A DNA stretch of 64,000 nt from Chloroflexota bacterium (GTDB lineage: Bacteria; Chloroflexota; Dehalococcoidia; Lucifugimonadales; GCA-002723415), in assembly GCA_002723415.1 (NCBI GenBank), contig PBOA01000009.1, forward strand, positions 23,258 through 87,257, in the 5' to 3' direction. The notes under the pieces were generated by a model, which made no database searches, had not been told where the DNA came from, and saw nothing but the letters and a program-made list of their open reading frames with translations. Each line of letters starts with the position of its first letter. Within the stretch, counting starts at the first letter, position 1. Positions 21,743 through 45,889 of the stretch are shown in pieces. The position numbers were made by a program, and so were the translations under genes.

Positions 21743-22318
21743 TTAATATTTATACAATTTGTTCTTTCTTATATAATCTTCTACTTTTTCTGGAACAAGC
21801 AAGTCTAAATTTGAACCTTGTTTTATTTTTTCTCTTATTTCACTTGCACTAACTTCAATAAATTTACCATCAATAATATTAAATTTAATATTTTTCATAT
21901 ATGACTTAGCGCTATTAAATCCAGGCCTATTAATAACAAAAAATTCTGAAGATTGTATCAAATCTTTATACCTGTGCCATTTTTTAATATCACTTAAAAC
22001 ATCTGAGCCTAAAAGAATACAAGGCTTATCTTCAGAATTTTTTTTATTAAGATCGGACAATGTATCGACCATATAAGTGGGGCCTTTTCTTTGAATATCT
22101 ACATCTGAGACAAAAAATGCTGGATTTGAATCTATAGCAATCTTTATCATATTTAACCTGTGAAATGCGCTTACTGTATTAGAGCTTTTCATCCAGGGAT
22201 TTCCCGCAGGCACAAATATAACTTTATTAAAGTTATATGAATTTAATGCCAGTTCGGCTGCCAATAAATGCCCCTTATGTATTGGGTCAAATGTTCCTCC
22301 AAATATAATTTCTCTCAC
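21743..22318 (-). CDS. nadD: Nicotinate-nucleotide adenylyltransferase
   Basis: FGGTFDPIHKGH, GPTYMVDT, LLGSD, VSASEIR; GTG start. Confidence 0.95.
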   Translation of the reverse strand: MREIIFGGTFDPIHKGHLLAAELALNSYNFNKVIFVPAGNPWMKSSNTVSAFHRLNMIKIAIDSNPAFFVSDVDIQRKGPTYMVDTLSDLNKKNSEDKPCILLGSDVLSDIKKWHRYKDLIQSSEFFVINRPGFNSAKSYMKNIKFNIIDGKFIEVSASEIREKIKQGSNLDLLVPEKVEDYIRKNKLYKY

Positions 22319-23565
22319 ATATTACCCCATTTCCACTCAGCTTCACCAATTCTCACCAAGCTACCTTCTTCAATTCCATAATCAATCAGTTTTTTAAAAA
22401 CTCCAGCCTTTTCTAAGAAAGCGTTCCATTGGGCTTTAGCATTCCAGTCTCTAAAGTCCACCATCCCTGAAACCCTCTCTCCTTTTCGGTACTCTACTAT
22501 AAATACACCATCTTTCTTAAGTATATTGATCTCATCTTGTATTTTTACAGGGACATCGTTTCTAATATATGAAGTAACCCTATCACAAGGAATATTCTTT
22601 AAAAGAGTTTCAATAGATTCTAGCAATGAACTGAGTCCTTCCCCTGTTAAAGCTGATATAAACACAGGGGACAGGGGATAAACCATTTCTTTTATTGAGC
22701 TTTTTTCTATGTTCATTTGGTCAACTTTATTAATAACAAGTAATTTCGGCTTGTTATTTAAACCTGATTGACTCATTTTTAATTCTGCATCAATCAAGCC
22801 AATATCATTTTTTATGTCAGAGGATGTCCCGTCAACTAAGTGGATTAGAGCTTGGGTTTTTTTAGCATGTTTTAAAAACTCAATTCCTAGTCCTGCGCCC
22901 TTATGTGCTCCTTCTATAAGTCCTGGAACTTCAATTACTTTTATAGTTTTTTCATCATTATAAATATTTACCATTCCAATTACTGGCTCGAGGGTTGTAA
23001 AAGGATATCCTGCTATTTTAGGCTTGGCCTTACTAATTCGTGATAAAGTCGTTGATTTACCAGCATTAGGAAGACCCACTATACCCACCTCTGCAAGTAT
23101 CCTCATTTCAAGTTTTAGTTGTTTTGAAGTAGTTTGTACTCCTTTTTCTGCCAATAATGGAAATCTATTGACTGGCGATACAAACCACTTATTTCCTTTT
23201 CCTCCACTTCCTCCATGTTGTAAAACAACTTCATCTTTGTTTTTTAATAATTCTGCGTAAGGATCACTCTCTTCGTCTTTATATATATATGTTCCAACAG
23301 GAACTTCTATAATCAAATTATTAGAATCCGAACCATGTTTTAGCCTTGGCTTTCCAGAATGCCCATCTGTCGCAAAAAACTTTTCGCCATTTCTAATATG
23401 ATTTAAAGTGTTTAAATTGTGGCTGGCTTTTACTATTATATCTCCTCCTTTTCCTCCATCACCCCCGTCAGGTCCACCAGCAGATACAAACTTTTCTTTC
23501 CTCCCACTAATACAACCATCTCCACCATTACCCGCCTTTATTGTAATTAATACTTCATCAATCAT
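22315..23565 (-). CDS. obgE: Obg/CgtA GTPase
   Basis: Gly-rich Obg fold (GGPDGGDGGKGG), G1 GLPNAGKS, G2 YPFTT, G4 NKVD, C-terminal OCT-like domain. Confidence 0.96.
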   Translation of the reverse strand: MIDEVLITIKAGNGGDGCISGRKEKFVSAGGPDGGDGGKGGDIIVKASHNLNTLNHIRNGEKFFATDGHSGKPRLKHGSDSNNLIIEVPVGTYIYKDEESDPYAELLKNKDEVVLQHGGSGGKGNKWFVSPVNRFPLLAEKGVQTTSKQLKLEMRILAEVGIVGLPNAGKSTTLSRISKAKPKIAGYPFTTLEPVIGMVNIYNDEKTIKVIEVPGLIEGAHKGAGLGIEFLKHAKKTQALIHLVDGTSSDIKNDIGLIDAELKMSQSGLNNKPKLLVINKVDQMNIEKSSIKEMVYPLSPVFISALTGEGLSSLLESIETLLKNIPCDRVTSYIRNDVPVKIQDEINILKKDGVFIVEYRKGERVSGMVDFRDWNAKAQWNAFLEKAGVFKKLIDYGIEEGSLVRIGEAEWKWGNM

Positions 23566-40928: not shown

Positions 40929-40991
40929 TGTTAAAACAATTTATATAGGATATAATTACATCTGATTAGAAATTAGAGATTGGAGTTAGGC

Positions 40992-41990
40992 ATGGTAAAC
41001 CCTGAATTCGAAATTAGGCCTTCAGTTCTAGTTGGTGATACGGCTGATATATCTCTTCAAAGAACTTTAACTGTTTTAAGAAATGAAGGATTAAATCCAA
41101 CTGTGGCTGTAGAATATTTTTCTAATAATAATGGGGTATTTTCTGGAATTAAAGAAGTTAAACTACTGTTAGCAAAAATACTACCAGAAGTAGGAGTAGA
41201 AGTCTGGGCTATAGATGAAGGTGAAAAAATGGAAAAAGGAGAAACAATTCTTAGAATTAAAGCTCCATACAGTTCGTTTGGTTTATATGATACTGCTATT
41301 TGCGGAACTCTTTCTTCAAGTAGTAACTGGGCTACTGCAGCAAGTAATTGTGTAGAAGTGGCAAAAGGCATACCGATAATTTGTACTGGATCTAAATATG
41401 TTCACCCGCTTGTTTCTTCAGGGTTAGATTATTCTTCAATAGTTGGAGGATGCTTAGCTTCTTCAACTATTCTAGGTTCAAGACTATCGGGATTGACCCC
41501 TTCTGGAGATATGCCACATTCTTTACCTTTATTATTTGGAGACACCTCAAAAGCTATGCAAGCCTTTGATAAACATATTCCTGTTGATGTTCCTAGAATC
41601 GCTTTAATTGATACTTTCAAAGATGAAACAGAGGAGTCAATTGCTGTTGCAACTTTGTTAAGAGAGAGGTTGAGAGGAGTTAGGCTAGATACTCCTTCAG
41701 AAAGAGGCGGTGTTACTCCTCAATTAGTGAAAGAGACAAGACTTCGCTTAGATCATGCAGGATTTAAGCATGTTGAAATTTTTGTTAGTGGCGGAATTAA
41801 TCCTGACAGAATAGTTGAGTTTGTTGATAATGATGCGCCAGTTAATACATTTACGGTTGGTTCTTATATAGCAAATTATACAGATATAAATTTTCATTCT
41901 GAAATTCATGAAATTGATGGCCGTCCTGTTGCAAAAAGAGGGAAGTTGCCTGGAATAAATGAGAATCCAAAATTAGGTCAAATAATGTAA
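40992..41990 (+). CDS. Nicotinate phosphoribosyltransferase-like type II PRTase, divergent active site
   Basis: MPH, LIDTF, VRLDTPSERGG, VSGGI, AKRG motifs; ATG 40992 preferred over TTG 40980. Confidence 0.85.
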   Translation: MVNPEFEIRPSVLVGDTADISLQRTLTVLRNEGLNPTVAVEYFSNNNGVFSGIKEVKLLLAKILPEVGVEVWAIDEGEKMEKGETILRIKAPYSSFGLYDTAICGTLSSSSNWATAASNCVEVAKGIPIICTGSKYVHPLVSSGLDYSSIVGGCLASSTILGSRLSGLTPSGDMPHSLPLLFGDTSKAMQAFDKHIPVDVPRIALIDTFKDETEESIAVATLLRERLRGVRLDTPSERGGVTPQLVKETRLRLDHAGFKHVEIFVSGGINPDRIVEFVDNDAPVNTFTVGSYIANYTDINFHSEIHEIDGRPVAKRGKLPGINENPKLGQIM

Positions 41991-41996
41991 CAGTTA

Positions 41997-43454
41997 TCAC
42001 TTAATATTTCGAGATATCTTAATTAATAGTTGCTTTTTTGTTAAATCATTAGTTTTATATAATTCTGATATTCTATAACCTACAACCCAGGCAATATTAT
42101 TTCCACAAAGAATTAGAGGTATAGAGTCTCTAATTCTTTGTGGAATTTTTAAATTGGTCATAAAGTCTTGTAATTTTTGGTTGTTTTTCATTCCTAGTGG
42201 TTGAAAACGATCACCTGAAATCCTTGTTCTTACATATATATTTTGCTTTTTTTCAGAACAATCCAATCCAATAGAGTATTCAATTTTACCTAATTGTTTG
42301 TTTTGAGTTTCTCTAAATATATATTTGTCTTTCTGGTTTGTGTATTCAGTTTCAATGGTCCAGTCTTTTAACATCGTTTTGCCGGGTGTTTGAACAATAT
42401 ATTTTTTATTAATATAGGGAAATTTATCACTATCAGTTTTGTTTTTAAAAATTTGACATATTTCGTAATCAACATAAAAAATCCAGCCATTTTTTAAATT
42501 TAAATATTGGCCAGGTTTCGAATTTATTATTTTAATCATAGGTTCTATATGATTAAAATATATATTAGAGGATTCTCCAGTTATCTTAGATATTAATTTA
42601 ATTAGTATTTTTCTTTGTATAGCATAATCTAATGCTTGGAAATCCTTTTTTTTAATATAAGCTGTATGATTTTTAATTTCTGTAGTTTTATTTAAATATT
42701 TATTTGTTTCCTTGTTTATATAATTAATATCTGAGGAGGCTATTTCAGAAAGTCTTTTTATAGATTTATTAATTGAGGGATTAAAATTTTTTTGTAAAAA
42801 AGGGATTAAGTCTAATCTAATTTTATTTCTTGTGAAATAATTAGAATAATTTGTAGAATCTTCTTGAAATTCAATATTATTTTTTAAACAATAATTTGAA
42901 TTTTCTAAATGTGTAAAGTGCAATAATGGACGAAAAATTTTGATAGAATTATAAGGACTTTTTTGATTACTCATAGGCTTCATGCCTGATAATCCTTCAA
43001 GCCCAGTGCCTCTTATTATATTCATCAATATTGTCTCTATGTTGTCATTAAAATTATGCCCTAATGCTATAGATTTTGCTCCAATCTGATTAGCAACAGA
43101 ATTTAGAAATTTATATCTGAATTCGCGCAAAATATTTTCATTAATAGTTGATTTATGTAGAGTTGATTTATCCAATTCTCCAATTGTAATAGGGAGGTTT
43201 AACTTACTTGCAAGTTTATTTACAAATTTAACATCATTTAGTGACTCAAGTTTTCTTTGATTATGATTAAAATGAGCAATATGTAAAGTTAGATCGAATT
43301 TGTCCTTAATTGAATATAATGAATGTAGCATTGCTGTGGAATCAGGTCCTCCTGATAAAGCAATAACTATTACCTTACCTAGGGATTCATAATATTTGGT
43401 TATATTTTCTGTTACTGATGTATTAATTTTATAAATAATTTTATCTTTATTCAT
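41997..43454 (-). CDS. tilS: tRNA(Ile)-lysidine synthetase
   Basis: ALSGGPDS, HFNH, GHNFND, RPLL, RNKIR, C-terminal GDRF/KKLQD-type domain. Confidence 0.95.
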   Translation of the reverse strand: MNKDKIIYKINTSVTENITKYYESLGKVIVIALSGGPDSTAMLHSLYSIKDKFDLTLHIAHFNHNQRKLESLNDVKFVNKLASKLNLPITIGELDKSTLHKSTINENILREFRYKFLNSVANQIGAKSIALGHNFNDNIETILMNIIRGTGLEGLSGMKPMSNQKSPYNSIKIFRPLLHFTHLENSNYCLKNNIEFQEDSTNYSNYFTRNKIRLDLIPFLQKNFNPSINKSIKRLSEIASSDINYINKETNKYLNKTTEIKNHTAYIKKKDFQALDYAIQRKILIKLISKITGESSNIYFNHIEPMIKIINSKPGQYLNLKNGWIFYVDYEICQIFKNKTDSDKFPYINKKYIVQTPGKTMLKDWTIETEYTNQKDKYIFRETQNKQLGKIEYSIGLDCSEKKQNIYVRTRISGDRFQPLGMKNNQKLQDFMTNLKIPQRIRDSIPLILCGNNIAWVVGYRISELYKTNDLTKKQLLIKISRNIK

Positions 43455-43470
43455 AATTTTTTAAATAAAT

Positions 43471-44751
43471 CTAGTTTAATTTTTCATACTTATAAATTTT
43501 TGATTTAGAGATTTGTAATGTTTCAATTTTTAGATTTTTCATTGTTATTATTTCAATTTTTAAGTTTTTATAACTTAGTTGTTGGCCTTCATTTGGGATT
43601 TTACCTAATATATTTAATACAAATCCAGCTACAGTTTCATAATCGCCTTCAGGTAAAGATATTTTCATTTGTTCATTGGCTTCTTCTAAGCTTATACCTC
43701 CATCAACCTGAAATGTATTTTTATCTATTGTTTCAACTTCTTCTTCTGGTCCATGGCCCTCTTCTCCTACAGGCCCCATTACTTCTTCAACTAATTCTTT
43801 TAAACTAACTAAACCTGCTATGCCTCCAAATTCATCTATTGCAATTGCAATTTGATTTCCAGTTTGACGTAATTCATTGAAAAGCTCAGCTATTCTTTTT
43901 GTTTCTGGAACAAAAAATACATCTCTAATAGAATCAGTTACAGATTCTTCAAGATTTATACTTTTGTTAGCCATTGCTTTTAGTATGTCTTTTGTTGAAA
44001 TAATTCCAATTATATTATCAACAGATTCTTTAAATATAGGAAATCTTGTATGTGGGTAACTTTTATATACTGATAAAAATTTATTTAGAGTTGTACCTCT
44101 CTTAATTGAAATTATTTCAGTTCTAGGCGTCATTACTTCTCTAACTTGTCTATCTCCAAATCGAAATACATTTTCAAGCATTTCAGCTTCACTTGACTCA
44201 AAAGTTCCTTCAGCTTCCCCTATATCTATTAAAGTTCGCAATTCTCCTTCAGTGATTGATATATTTGAAACACTACCAAAAAATGATCCTATATGCTTAC
44301 TTAACCAATGTAAAATTGTAACAATAGGCTTAAATGCCCATTGGGTTAATATTAATGGGTTTGCATAAATAAAGGCTATTTTTTCAGAATGTCTTAAGGC
44401 TAATGATTTTGGAATAGTTTCACCAAATACTAAAAGGCATATTGTTCCTAATAAAGTGGCAATAATAACACCAAATGCTTCACCTATTTTATCTACTATA
44501 ATTGCGGTTACTATTGCCGCAAACGCAACGTTGACAAGGTTGTTTGCAAGTAAAATTGTAAATAGTAAGTTTTCGGGAGTTTGAATCATTTTTGAAACTT
44601 TAATAGCGGAAAGGTGGCCTGTTGAAGCTAAATGGGAAATTCTAGACTTTTGTAGAGATAGATATGCTGCTTCAGCACTTGAGAAAAATGCTGAAAGAAA
44701 AATACAAAATATTGATAAAGATATTAATCCCCATGTTTCATTTCCTGACAT
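43471..44751 (-). CDS. CNNM/CorC (hemolysin-family) transporter: DUF21 + CBS pair + CorC_HlyC
   Basis: FFSSAEAA, GETIPKS, VMTPR, HTRFP, IDEFGG, YETVAGF. Confidence 0.92.
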   Translation of the reverse strand: MSGNETWGLISLSIFCIFLSAFFSSAEAAYLSLQKSRISHLASTGHLSAIKVSKMIQTPENLLFTILLANNLVNVAFAAIVTAIIVDKIGEAFGVIIATLLGTICLLVFGETIPKSLALRHSEKIAFIYANPLILTQWAFKPIVTILHWLSKHIGSFFGSVSNISITEGELRTLIDIGEAEGTFESSEAEMLENVFRFGDRQVREVMTPRTEIISIKRGTTLNKFLSVYKSYPHTRFPIFKESVDNIIGIISTKDILKAMANKSINLEESVTDSIRDVFFVPETKRIAELFNELRQTGNQIAIAIDEFGGIAGLVSLKELVEEVMGPVGEEGHGPEEEVETIDKNTFQVDGGISLEEANEQMKISLPEGDYETVAGFVLNILGKIPNEGQQLSYKNLKIEIITMKNLKIETLQISKSKIYKYEKLN

Positions 44752-44899
44752 GCATTTCTCCTTTTATTTTATTAATACTTATAAATATATTTTTTGAACA
44801 TATCATTAAAATAAGTAAATTATATAATAACAAATAACAATGCTGAAAATATTTTTGAATTAAGCTAGGGTTTTATTGCTAAATAGTTAATAAAATAGC

Positions 44900-45889
44900 T
44901 TAAGTCAGGATTTTTTCTTTAACTAAAGATTCTATTTCTTTTGTGATTTCTGGGTTGTTCTTTAGAAATGCTTTGCTGTTTTCTCTGCCTTGACCTAACT
45001 TTGTTTCTCCAAATGAATAAAATGCACCACTTTTGTTTATTATTTTTGATTCAGTTCCTAAATCTAATAAATCTCCGGTTTTGCTAATTCCTTCGTTAAA
45101 CATTATGTCAAATTCAGCTAATCTAAAAGGAGGGGCAACTTTATTTTTAACAATTTTAGCTTTTACTCTGTTTCCGATTACATCAGTGCCTTGCTTGAGG
45201 GATTCAATTCTTCTAAGGTCAATTCTTACAGAGCTATAGAATTTTAAGGCTCTGCCTCCAGGAGTTACTTCAGGGTTGCCGAAAAAAACACCAACTTTTT
45301 CTCGTATTTGATTAATAAATATTACTGCTGTATTTGAGCGGCTAATTGCTGCTGTTAATTTTCTGAGACCTTGAGACATTAATCTTGCTTGTAACCCAAC
45401 ATGTGAATCGCCCATATCCCCCTCTAATTCTGCTTTAGGTACCATTGCAGCAACACTATCAACAACTAGTATATCTAGTGCTCCACTTCTAACTAAATAT
45501 TCACAAATTTCTAGGCTTTGTTCTGCTGTATCTGGTTGTGAAACTAGTAGTTCATCAATATTTACTCCACACTTTTTTGCATACAGTGGATCCATTGCGT
45601 GCTCAGCGTCTATATAAGCTGCGTATCCATTTACGCGCTGGGCTTCAGCCATGAAATGATATGCCAAAGTTGTTTTTCCTGAGGATTCGTTGCCAAATAT
45701 TTCTGTTATTCTACCTTTAGGAACGCCGCCAATACCTAAAGCTGAGTCTAGAGAAATTGATCCACTTGGTATAGATTGGACTGCAGGGTCTTGGTTTTCA
45801 TCACCCATTTTCATTACTGCGCCACTGCCAAAATGTCTGTCTATTTGACTTATAGCTAATTCAAGAGCTTTGGCTTTATCATTATTCAT
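44900..45889 (-). CDS. recA: Recombinase A
   Basis: [35 protein letters not shown]. Confidence 0.99.

Follow-up and report, generated by a model that had tools for sequence, protein, structure and literature searches.

A nicotinate phosphoribosyltransferase homologue with a remodelled base pocket in a SAR202 genome in which no nicotinamidase gene was found

The closest described relatives of the protein considered here are the archaeal-type nicotinate phosphoribosyltransferases (NAPRTases) of Pyrococcus furiosus (2I14) and Thermoplasma acidophilum (1YTD/1YTK). These enzymes consist of an N-domain and an alpha/beta-barrel with the type II phosphoribosyltransferase (PRTase) fold, and their alignment displays the motifs TTDVYFLRT/ASDVYFERT, FGIRHMHP/FGIRRMHP, GTMPHA and FGVG. 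Subtraction of a 6-residue tag from the PDB chain numbering places the T. acidophilum pocket residues at Tyr21, Phe138 and Thr179. The first two match the residue numbers of the structure paper on the T. acidophilum enzyme (TaNAPRTase), in which a Thr reportedly contacts the nicotinate carboxylate. A homologue of these enzymes is encoded in the 64,000-nucleotide stretch of contig PBOA01000009.1 analyzed here (the window), which comes from a SAR202/Dehalococcoidia bacterium. The best explanation of this gene, which we rate as about evenly balanced, is that its product is a working pyridine salvage enzyme dependent on phosphoribosyl pyrophosphate (PRPP), probably still nicotinate-specific. Its polar pocket would be peculiar to this lineage, whose streamlined genome has dropped the nicotinamidase gene pncA. 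The gene and its ribosome binding site, the latter read from the sequence, are as follows:

40992..41990, + strand: NAPRTase-like (pncB-like) gene, intact open reading frame (ORF) of 332 codons with ATG at 40992 and a stop ending at 41990
40982-40985, + strand: GGAG Shine-Dalgarno sequence, 6 nt ahead of the ATG at 40992

The ATG at 40992 rather than a TTG at 40980 is taken as the start, because the homologues open with MVNxxFEIRP. The source genome is 1.86 Mb in size, 97.6% complete and about 31% GC. Its family has no other representative in the set of 40 order-level relatives, which are GTDB species representatives picked as nearest. All statements on absence from this genome refer to the 97.6%-complete assembly. 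The NAPRTase-like gene is present in a single copy. A search for a second canonical pncB, proposed in the initial annotation of this DNA, gave none, and no PF04095-type pncB or NAMPT was found either.

The Pfam domains QRPTase_N and QRPTase_C make up the 332-amino acid (aa) protein. Its score with the nicotinate phosphoribosyltransferase equivalog model NF006415 (PRK08662) is 365.4 bits, well above the cut-off of 243, and the match spans profile positions 11-323 of 381. The two Pfam domains and the fold are shared with the quinolinate PRTase NadC, but the NadC model TIGR00078 gives 34.7 bits and remains far below its cut-off of 198.4. The nearest solved structures are 2I14 (E 2e-59) and 1YTD (2e-36). 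Identity to the archaeal-type enzymes is 30-38% over about 310 residues, and the His (MPH), RLDT, SGG and VG motifs are found in both. An AlphaFold2 model, for which 120 homologues were aligned, has a pLDDT of 86.3 and a pTM of 0.85. In a Foldseek search it superimposes with a TMq of 0.83 on 2I14 and 0.82 on 1YTD, and the E. faecalis NAPRTase and quinolinate enzymes score lower. The comparison with TaNAPRTase that had been suggested at the outset thus confirms an archaeal-type NAPRTase homologue.

There is, however, one difference in architecture from the archaeal enzymes, which the initial annotation overlooked. The C-terminal Zn-knuckle-like domain of ~60 aa is absent: aligned with the PDB chains of 395-398 aa, the protein stops at their residue ~327, and 2I14 and 1YTD extend about 65 residues further. 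The same domain is missing from the whole bacterial short-form clade to which the protein belongs. About 332 aa is also the length of each of the 120 best homologues, which without exception derive from SAR202/Dehalococcoidia, a taxonomy borne out by 80 genome loci; orthologues encoded behind pncA, such as those of L011 and L012, carry the annotation 'nicotinate phosphoribosyltransferase [SAR202 cluster bacterium]'. The human and E. faecalis NaPRTases (PF04095; 4YUB, 2F7F) form a different, much longer subfamily with 18% identity, although the pocket layout is similar, with a non-aromatic second clamp, and the same chemistry would be expected. PF04095 gives no match in the source genome. NAMPT/NadV also belongs to the type II PRTase superfamily and shares with the window protein the presence of a base-pocket Asp, but the window protein is not matched by PF04095 and lacks the Tyr18/Phe193 clamp of NAMPT, both positions being non-aromatic.

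The residues that line the pocket and bind PRPP are distributed over the gene as listed below:

41052..41054, + strand: TCT codon for Ser21, where the T. acidophilum and human enzymes have the pyridine-stacking Tyr21
41385..41399, + strand: T132-G-S134-K135-Y136, in place of F-G-I-R-R/H; second ring clamp and PRPP-phosphate Arg position
41505..41522, + strand: G172-D173-M-P-H176-S177; H176 is the phospho-His equivalent, and D173 stands where the family has Thr and most SAR202 proteins have Asn
41682..41696, + strand: R231-L-D-T-P; carboxylate/ribose-binding Arg kept
41787..41795, + strand: S266-G-G phosphate loop, kept
41850..41864, + strand: F287-T288-V-G-S second phosphate loop; V289-G290 kept, position 288 variable in the clade

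The sequence motifs on which the initial annotation was built are all in place, both the divergent ones (TADISLQRT, aa 17-25; CTGSKYVHP, 131-139; GDMPHS, 172-177; FTVGS, 287-291) and the retained ones (RLDTP, 231-235; SGG, 266-268; the phospho-His, H176). Its description of the typical family motifs is also correct for the broad family. This was surveyed with 50%-identity representatives from a search over 1.8 billion cluster representatives, in which the long archaeal-type proteins are almost uniform (D[VI]YF / FG.RR.HP / GT[MI]PH[AS] / RLDT / SGG / FG[VI]G). The window protein reads DISL / TGSKYVHP / GDMPHS / RLDT / SGG / FTVGS, so that Y, F, R, R/H, T and G of the wider family are replaced by S21, T132, K135, Y136, D173 and T288, respectively. 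In terms of TaNAPRTase, Tyr21 is changed to Ser, Phe138 to Thr, Arg-Arg/His to Lys-Tyr, Thr179 to Asp, and the Gly of the FGVG loop to Thr. The stacking position is a Tyr in nearly all long-form representatives and in 99 of the 120 close homologues. The position of the basic residue that binds the PRPP phosphate (FG.R; human R171) is occupied by Lys135 in the window protein and in homologue L005, and by Arg in the sister lineage L009. The pocket is more polar and less aromatic, which makes an altered affinity likely, although new chemistry need not be invoked.

That these substitutions could result from a sequencing or assembly error, or that the gene could be a pseudogene, has practically no probability left. 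The ORF is intact. Two other lineages from independent metagenomes, at 83-85% protein identity, carry the same pocket and keep the same gene order, and the pocket codons TCT, ACT, TAT and GAT are identical in them (ENA, JGI and Logan assemblies), in agreement with the initial view that such clustered changes are unlikely to be sequencing noise. The ratio of nonsynonymous to synonymous substitution rates (dN/dS) is about 0.11. An artefact or a decaying pseudogene is excluded.

The purifying selection is stronger than that on the neighboring genes, which answers the question of conservation raised at the outset. Within the clade of three members, which are separated by synonymous distances (dS) of 0.66-1.05, dN/dS is 0.107-0.128 for the NAPRTase-like gene, and its identity to relatives is 62-66%. 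The corresponding values for the neighbors, with identities to the same relatives, are:

purH: dN/dS 0.13-0.22 (three-member clade); 48-54% identity
GT2: dN/dS 0.16-0.22 (three-member clade); 50-53% identity
tilS: dN/dS 0.13-0.22 (three-member clade); 30-36% identity
purM: 47-52% identity

None of the three members has lost a catalytic or PRPP motif. Two of 20 pocket positions vary among them, and do so conservatively (K/R135 and T/S288). The other 82 bacterial sequences share 162 positions with a conservation of at least 85%; only 12 of these are changed in all three members, mostly conservatively. In both trees of the family, the stem of this clade is the longest internal branch (0.87 and 0.62). 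A gene-specific acceleration was considered and rejected, as the neighboring genes have moved still further away from these relatives and the genome is alone in its family within the set of nearest representatives. The long stem is attributed instead to the depth of the lineage and to a drastic compositional shift (GC at third codon positions, GC3, of 17% against 66-82%). The gene (40992-41987) has a GC content of 36%, and the relatives L011, L012, L016 and L018 have 58-65% with the GC3 of 66-82% just given, which is an extreme shift between orthologues with 62-66% protein identity.

The gene closes a purM-purH-GT2 run, and tilS, CNNM and recA converge on it from the other strand. The gene order on which the orthology rests is purF-purM-purH-GT2-[pncA]-pncB, followed by tilS-CNNM-recA on the opposite strand. 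In relatives at 58-66% identity (L011, L012), the order is GT2, an isochorismatase of 179 aa and NAPRTase, then tilS on the other strand. The best PDB matches of this isochorismatase are nicotinamidases (5ZN8, 3S2S, 3O90 and 1ILW). The window gene occupies the same GT2-tilS position as the L011 and L012 genes, encodes a protein of the same 332 aa and has the same catalytic motifs, but its adjoining pncA is deleted. The site of the loss is:

40929..40991, + strand: spacer of 63 nt between GT2 and the NAPRTase-like gene, the site of the 179-aa pncA in relatives, cleanly absent here

No PF00857 or isochorismatase-family gene was found in the source genome, and hence no remote pncA either. The window gene is a vertical, syntenic, single-copy orthologue of the SAR202/Dehalococcoidia short-form pncB.

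In about half of the 80 genome loci, pncA lies immediately upstream of the short-form gene. Among 22 order-level genomes with a short-form gene, pncA is adjacent in 10, an isochorismatase is encoded elsewhere in 3, and none is found in 9; these nine genomes measure mostly 1.3-2.5 Mb. A protein of 509 aa (P0121) is a fusion of isochorismatase and NAPRTase with a canonical pocket. The adjacency, the nicotinamidase-like PDB matches and this fusion identify the short-form clade, by context, as the pncB partner of pncA. Comparison of window positions 41997-45889 with L011 and L012 reveals that the window clade has lost two more genes, namely His_Phos_1, which in the relatives separates tilS from CNNM, and recX, which precedes recA there. 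Three small genes (pncA, His_Phos_1 and recX) have therefore been deleted from one syntenic block of 10 kb, and their loss from a single region suggests general streamlining.

The downstream part of a nicotinate salvage route is encoded in the same genome, partly within the window:

21746..22321, - strand: nadD (nicotinate-nucleotide adenylyltransferase), stop-to-stop frame; NF000840 199 bits, cut-off 150

About 19 kb separate this upstream gene from the PRTase gene, and its product would consume the nicotinate mononucleotide (NaMN) made by the PRTase. The genome also encodes NadA, NadC (C5:72074-72883, 294 bits, next to nadA), a glutamine-type NadE, and a CinA of full length in which a PncC-type domain is weakly matched. 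The route from NaMN to nicotinamide adenine dinucleotide (NAD) is complete, and nicotinamide mononucleotide (NMN) could enter it by deamidation, so the pathway context does not discriminate between the two substrates. The presence of NadA, NadC, NadD and NadE makes salvage an accessory to de novo synthesis. No sirtuin was detected in the genome, so that nicotinamide lacks one of its major internal sources.

The data above establish homology, fold, synteny, single copy number, loss of pncA, selection and the downstream pathway. How the enzyme may work can be described by analogy with its family, and we infer from this that it is active, acts as a dimer and uses nicotinate. Two subunits would associate head to tail, each closing the barrel pocket of its partner with its N-terminal helix (residues 19-31, with S21 and R24). 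K135 and R231, together with the SGG and VG loops, would grip PRPP. The base, a pyridine and most probably nicotinate from seawater, would be joined with ribose-5-phosphate into NaMN, which NadD and the glutamine-dependent NadE could then turn into NAD, beside the intact de novo route (NadA, NadC). With S21, T132, S134, K135, Y136, D173, S177 and T288, the lineage has its own variant of a pocket whose residues are labile across the whole bacterial clade.

This lability becomes apparent when the window protein is compared with its bacterial relatives rather than with archaea. The modal SAR202 pocket is VYL/LGARHV/GNMPHA/FGVGS, and that of the window clade is (V/I)SL/TG(S/A)(K/R)YV/GDMPHS/F(T/S)VGS. 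Position 132 is L/T/S/M/I/V/A/F/Y in the short-form clade, genes linked to pncA included; position 173 is mostly Asn but also S/T/D/H/G; position 177 is A/S/T/V/I/P/Q/D; and position 288 is G/A/S/T/W/I/L/C. Position 21 is mostly Tyr, with Ser, Glu, Phe, His, Asn, Ala and Val in several independent lineages. Many of the window residues are found directly behind an intact pncA, in homologues that presumably are nicotinate enzymes: S21 in L051 and L107, D173 in L068, L081 and L088, T132 in many, K135 in L062 and L064, and S288 in, for example, L028 and L062. T288 occurs in homologues whose pockets are otherwise modal. Y136 alone was not seen behind an adjacent pncA in any intact-motif homologue of the surveyed loci.

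A tally of 20 pocket and motif positions, which we defined ourselves, was compared pairwise with other pairs of equal overall identity. The window protein differs from the clade at 7.3 of the 20 positions on average, and clade pairs at 6.2 ± 1.4, with at least 7 differences in 38% of such pairs. The proposition that the pocket had changed more than expected was rejected on these figures. The pocket is exceptional only against archaea; what is unique is the combination S21 + T132 + Y136 + D173, which is confined to the window clade, together with the absence of pncA. The initial proposal that a rebuilt base pocket marks a candidate new PRTase is borne out only in part. The substitutions are real, fixed in a clade of genus or family level and kept under purifying selection, but the comparison set consisted of distant archaeal enzymes. 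Free variation of these residues among validated PncB enzymes had been named as a sign against the proposal; they do vary freely in the bacterial short-form clade, including its pncA-linked members, presumed to use nicotinate.

Two further large subclades, neither with pncA in the flanks, have fixed pocket variants of their own. One has a DNEL/YGARHV pocket, in which Tyr21 is replaced by Glu, a new Tyr appears at position 132, and Phe or Tyr stands at 291 (L056, L060, L072, L076-L079, L082, L084, L085, L091 and L092). In the second, RLD is changed to RIN or RVN, with Asn for the Asp that follows the carboxylate Arg (L027, L030-L032, L036, L038, L040, L041, L043, L044 and L058).

In human NaPRTase, the ring of the base is clamped by Tyr21 and Leu170, touched by Gly209 and Leu211, and accompanied by the conserved His213 and by Arg318 as the partner of the carboxylate; Ser214 is the equivalent of Asp219 of NAMPT, and the Y21A mutant keeps 50% of the activity with ATP (PMC4442680). 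The window residues G172, M174, H176 and S177 correspond to human G209, L211, H213 and S214, R231 corresponds to R318, and D173 to residue 210. This mapping derives from the coordinates of the profile-to-4YUB stretch and from the E. faecalis alignment (SGTHAHS / sgdmphs), since 4YUB fell below the threshold in a PDB search with the barrel fragment and gave no direct human alignment. The position paired with NAMPT Asp219 is thus occupied by Ser177, as in human NaPRTase, and D173 lies four residues earlier. The idea that an Asp in the pocket confers nicotinamide specificity does not hold at this position, and the step from such an Asp to amide specificity is consequently weak. Nor does the loss of both aromatic residues indicate a new substrate, as had been supposed: the activity of the human Y21A mutant and the Leu in the human second clamp mean that it is not disqualifying for the use of nicotinate. 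An Asp at the position aligned with human Ser214 and NAMPT Asp219 is found elsewhere in the clade, in L071:2805-3800 (GNMPHD), and a Gln (GNMPHQ) in L057 (6001-6996) and L104 (1501-2496), in each case with no pncA nearby. On sequence grounds, these three proteins would be better candidates for nicotinamide use than the window protein.

A change of base specificity after the loss of nicotinamidase, to nicotinamide as in NAMPT or to another polar N-heterocycle, is nevertheless a coherent alternative, which we hold to be unlikely. D173 and the hydroxyls of S21, T132, S134, Y136, S177 and T288 would serve as hydrogen-bond partners of the new base, and NMN would reach NAD by way of the CinA/PncC-like deamidase and NadD/NadE; the full-length CinA would make NMN usable. 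The genome has no pncA, no PF04095 pncB or NAMPT and no second copy of the gene. The clade-unique pocket combination is fixed at a dN/dS of about 0.11, and Y136 occurs in four independent intact-motif lineages, none of them with pncA nearby. Yet D173 and S21 coexist with an adjacent pncA in the homologues named above, the Asp219 equivalent is in the NaPRTase state, and the carboxylate partner R231 is retained. The missing sirtuin source of nicotinamide also argues against such a change, as does a pocket divergence that is unexceptional for the clade. Of the 22 relatives, 9 have no isochorismatase, and some of these (G009, G016 and G014) have near-canonical pockets, which demonstrates that the loss of pncA requires no specificity switch. 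The more explicit version, according to which this pncA-less, sirtuin-less SAR202 lineage re-tuned the S21/T132/Y136/D173 pocket to the direct use of nicotinamide or another polar N-heterocycle and so replaced the two-step PncA-PncB route by a convergent, NAMPT-like or new activity within the archaeal-type family, appears quite improbable.

Several observations weigh against a working nicotinate enzyme. The stacking Tyr is kept in the characterized NaPRTases and in NAMPT, whereas the window protein has Ser there and, simultaneously, Thr in the other clamp. D173 would bring a carboxylate close to the place at which, in TaNAPRTase, a Thr reportedly contacts the nicotinate carboxylate. Y21S (TAT>TCT) and N173D (AAT>GAT) oppose the extreme AT mutation pressure of the lineage, which R135K and H136Y follow; the first two changes hint at selection on the pocket rather than drift, and speak for a specificity change. 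No assay of any member of the short-form bacterial clade was found in the literature searched, and a search on NAD salvage in SAR202/Chloroflexi returned nothing. A score above the NF006415 cut-off proves little about activity, because dead orthologues exceed it as well: four of the five described next do so, with 306-330 bits in the absence of the catalytic His, Arg or SGG. Finally, eight other order-level genomes have no pncA, and five of these encode an orthologue without its catalytic motifs, so that catalysis is evidently dispensable in similar genomic settings.

These five are L110 (genome G026), L115 (G025), L117 (G031), L118 (G035) and L119 (G027). They are syntenic orthologues in the context purH-GT2-X-tilS or X-tilS, without pncA and mostly from small SAR202 genomes, with intact ORFs of ~330 aa (the match covers about 1500-2490 of each locus), and they lack the catalytic His176, Arg231, the SGG and/or the VG loop. 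They look like retained, mis-annotated pseudo-enzymes. Degenerate representatives are also present in the global library (P0123, P0125, P0128, P0131, P0135, P0136 and P0142). One of them, P0142 (509 aa), is an isochorismatase fusion with a degenerate PRTase half (no His, KLTT, GGD), in which Pfam recognizes QRPTase_N only. As judged from these sequences, the short-form family repeatedly drifts to non-catalytic but retained forms after the loss of pncA.

The window protein could have taken the same path, being non-catalytic or on the way to it and kept for a regulatory, PRPP- or NaMN-sensing or structural role. The persistence of the degenerate orthologues at full length in G025, G026, G027, G031 and G035, and of their counterparts in the library, lends some credit to this explanation, as do the recurrence of the window's SKYVHP in degenerate L119 ('VSKYVHP') and a full de novo route that makes salvage dispensable. 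We consider it unlikely, however. The PRPP, phosphate and His motifs are all kept over dS 0.66-1.05, ample time for unconstrained decay, and the pocket positions vary so little and so conservatively within the clade. A sister relationship between the window clade and the degenerate orthologues, which the shared SKYVHP might imply, was examined and is not supported by the tree, with the caveats that apply to long branches. The retention of all motifs over this distance and the position outside the dead forms lead us to read the protein as still catalytic. A decaying gene is excluded by the dN/dS; the earlier suggestion of a regulatory pseudo-enzyme has a precedent in the dead syntenic orthologues that persist in other pncA-less genomes.

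If the window protein is a plain nicotinate PRTase, the 'invariant' Tyr/Phe clamp and Thr are not invariant in a large, uncharacterized bacterial short-form clade. Should its specificity be altered, direct salvage of nicotinamide or of another base would have originated independently in this lineage. In addition, a name based on a hidden Markov model, 'nicotinate phosphoribosyltransferase', is being attached to orthologues without catalytic residues. Within one order of abundant ocean bacteria, a series extends from the pncA-pncB pair through a lone canonical pncB and the remodelled pocket of the window to the motif-less retained orthologues. Such a series could be used to study the loss or repurposing of vitamin B3 salvage during genome streamlining, and the interest lies more in this clade-wide evolutionary series than in the window gene alone.

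Outside the window, the same genome encodes a further protein that may act on pyridine nucleotides (C33:58679-59812, - strand, 377 aa). Its N-terminal part weakly resembles CinA/PncC (26 bits), its C-terminal part contains a weakly matched cytidylyltransferase-like domain (27 bits) with a GxFNPLHKGH motif, and no NCBIfam model matches it above cut-off. On these features it could be an uncharacterized pyridine-nucleotide enzyme.

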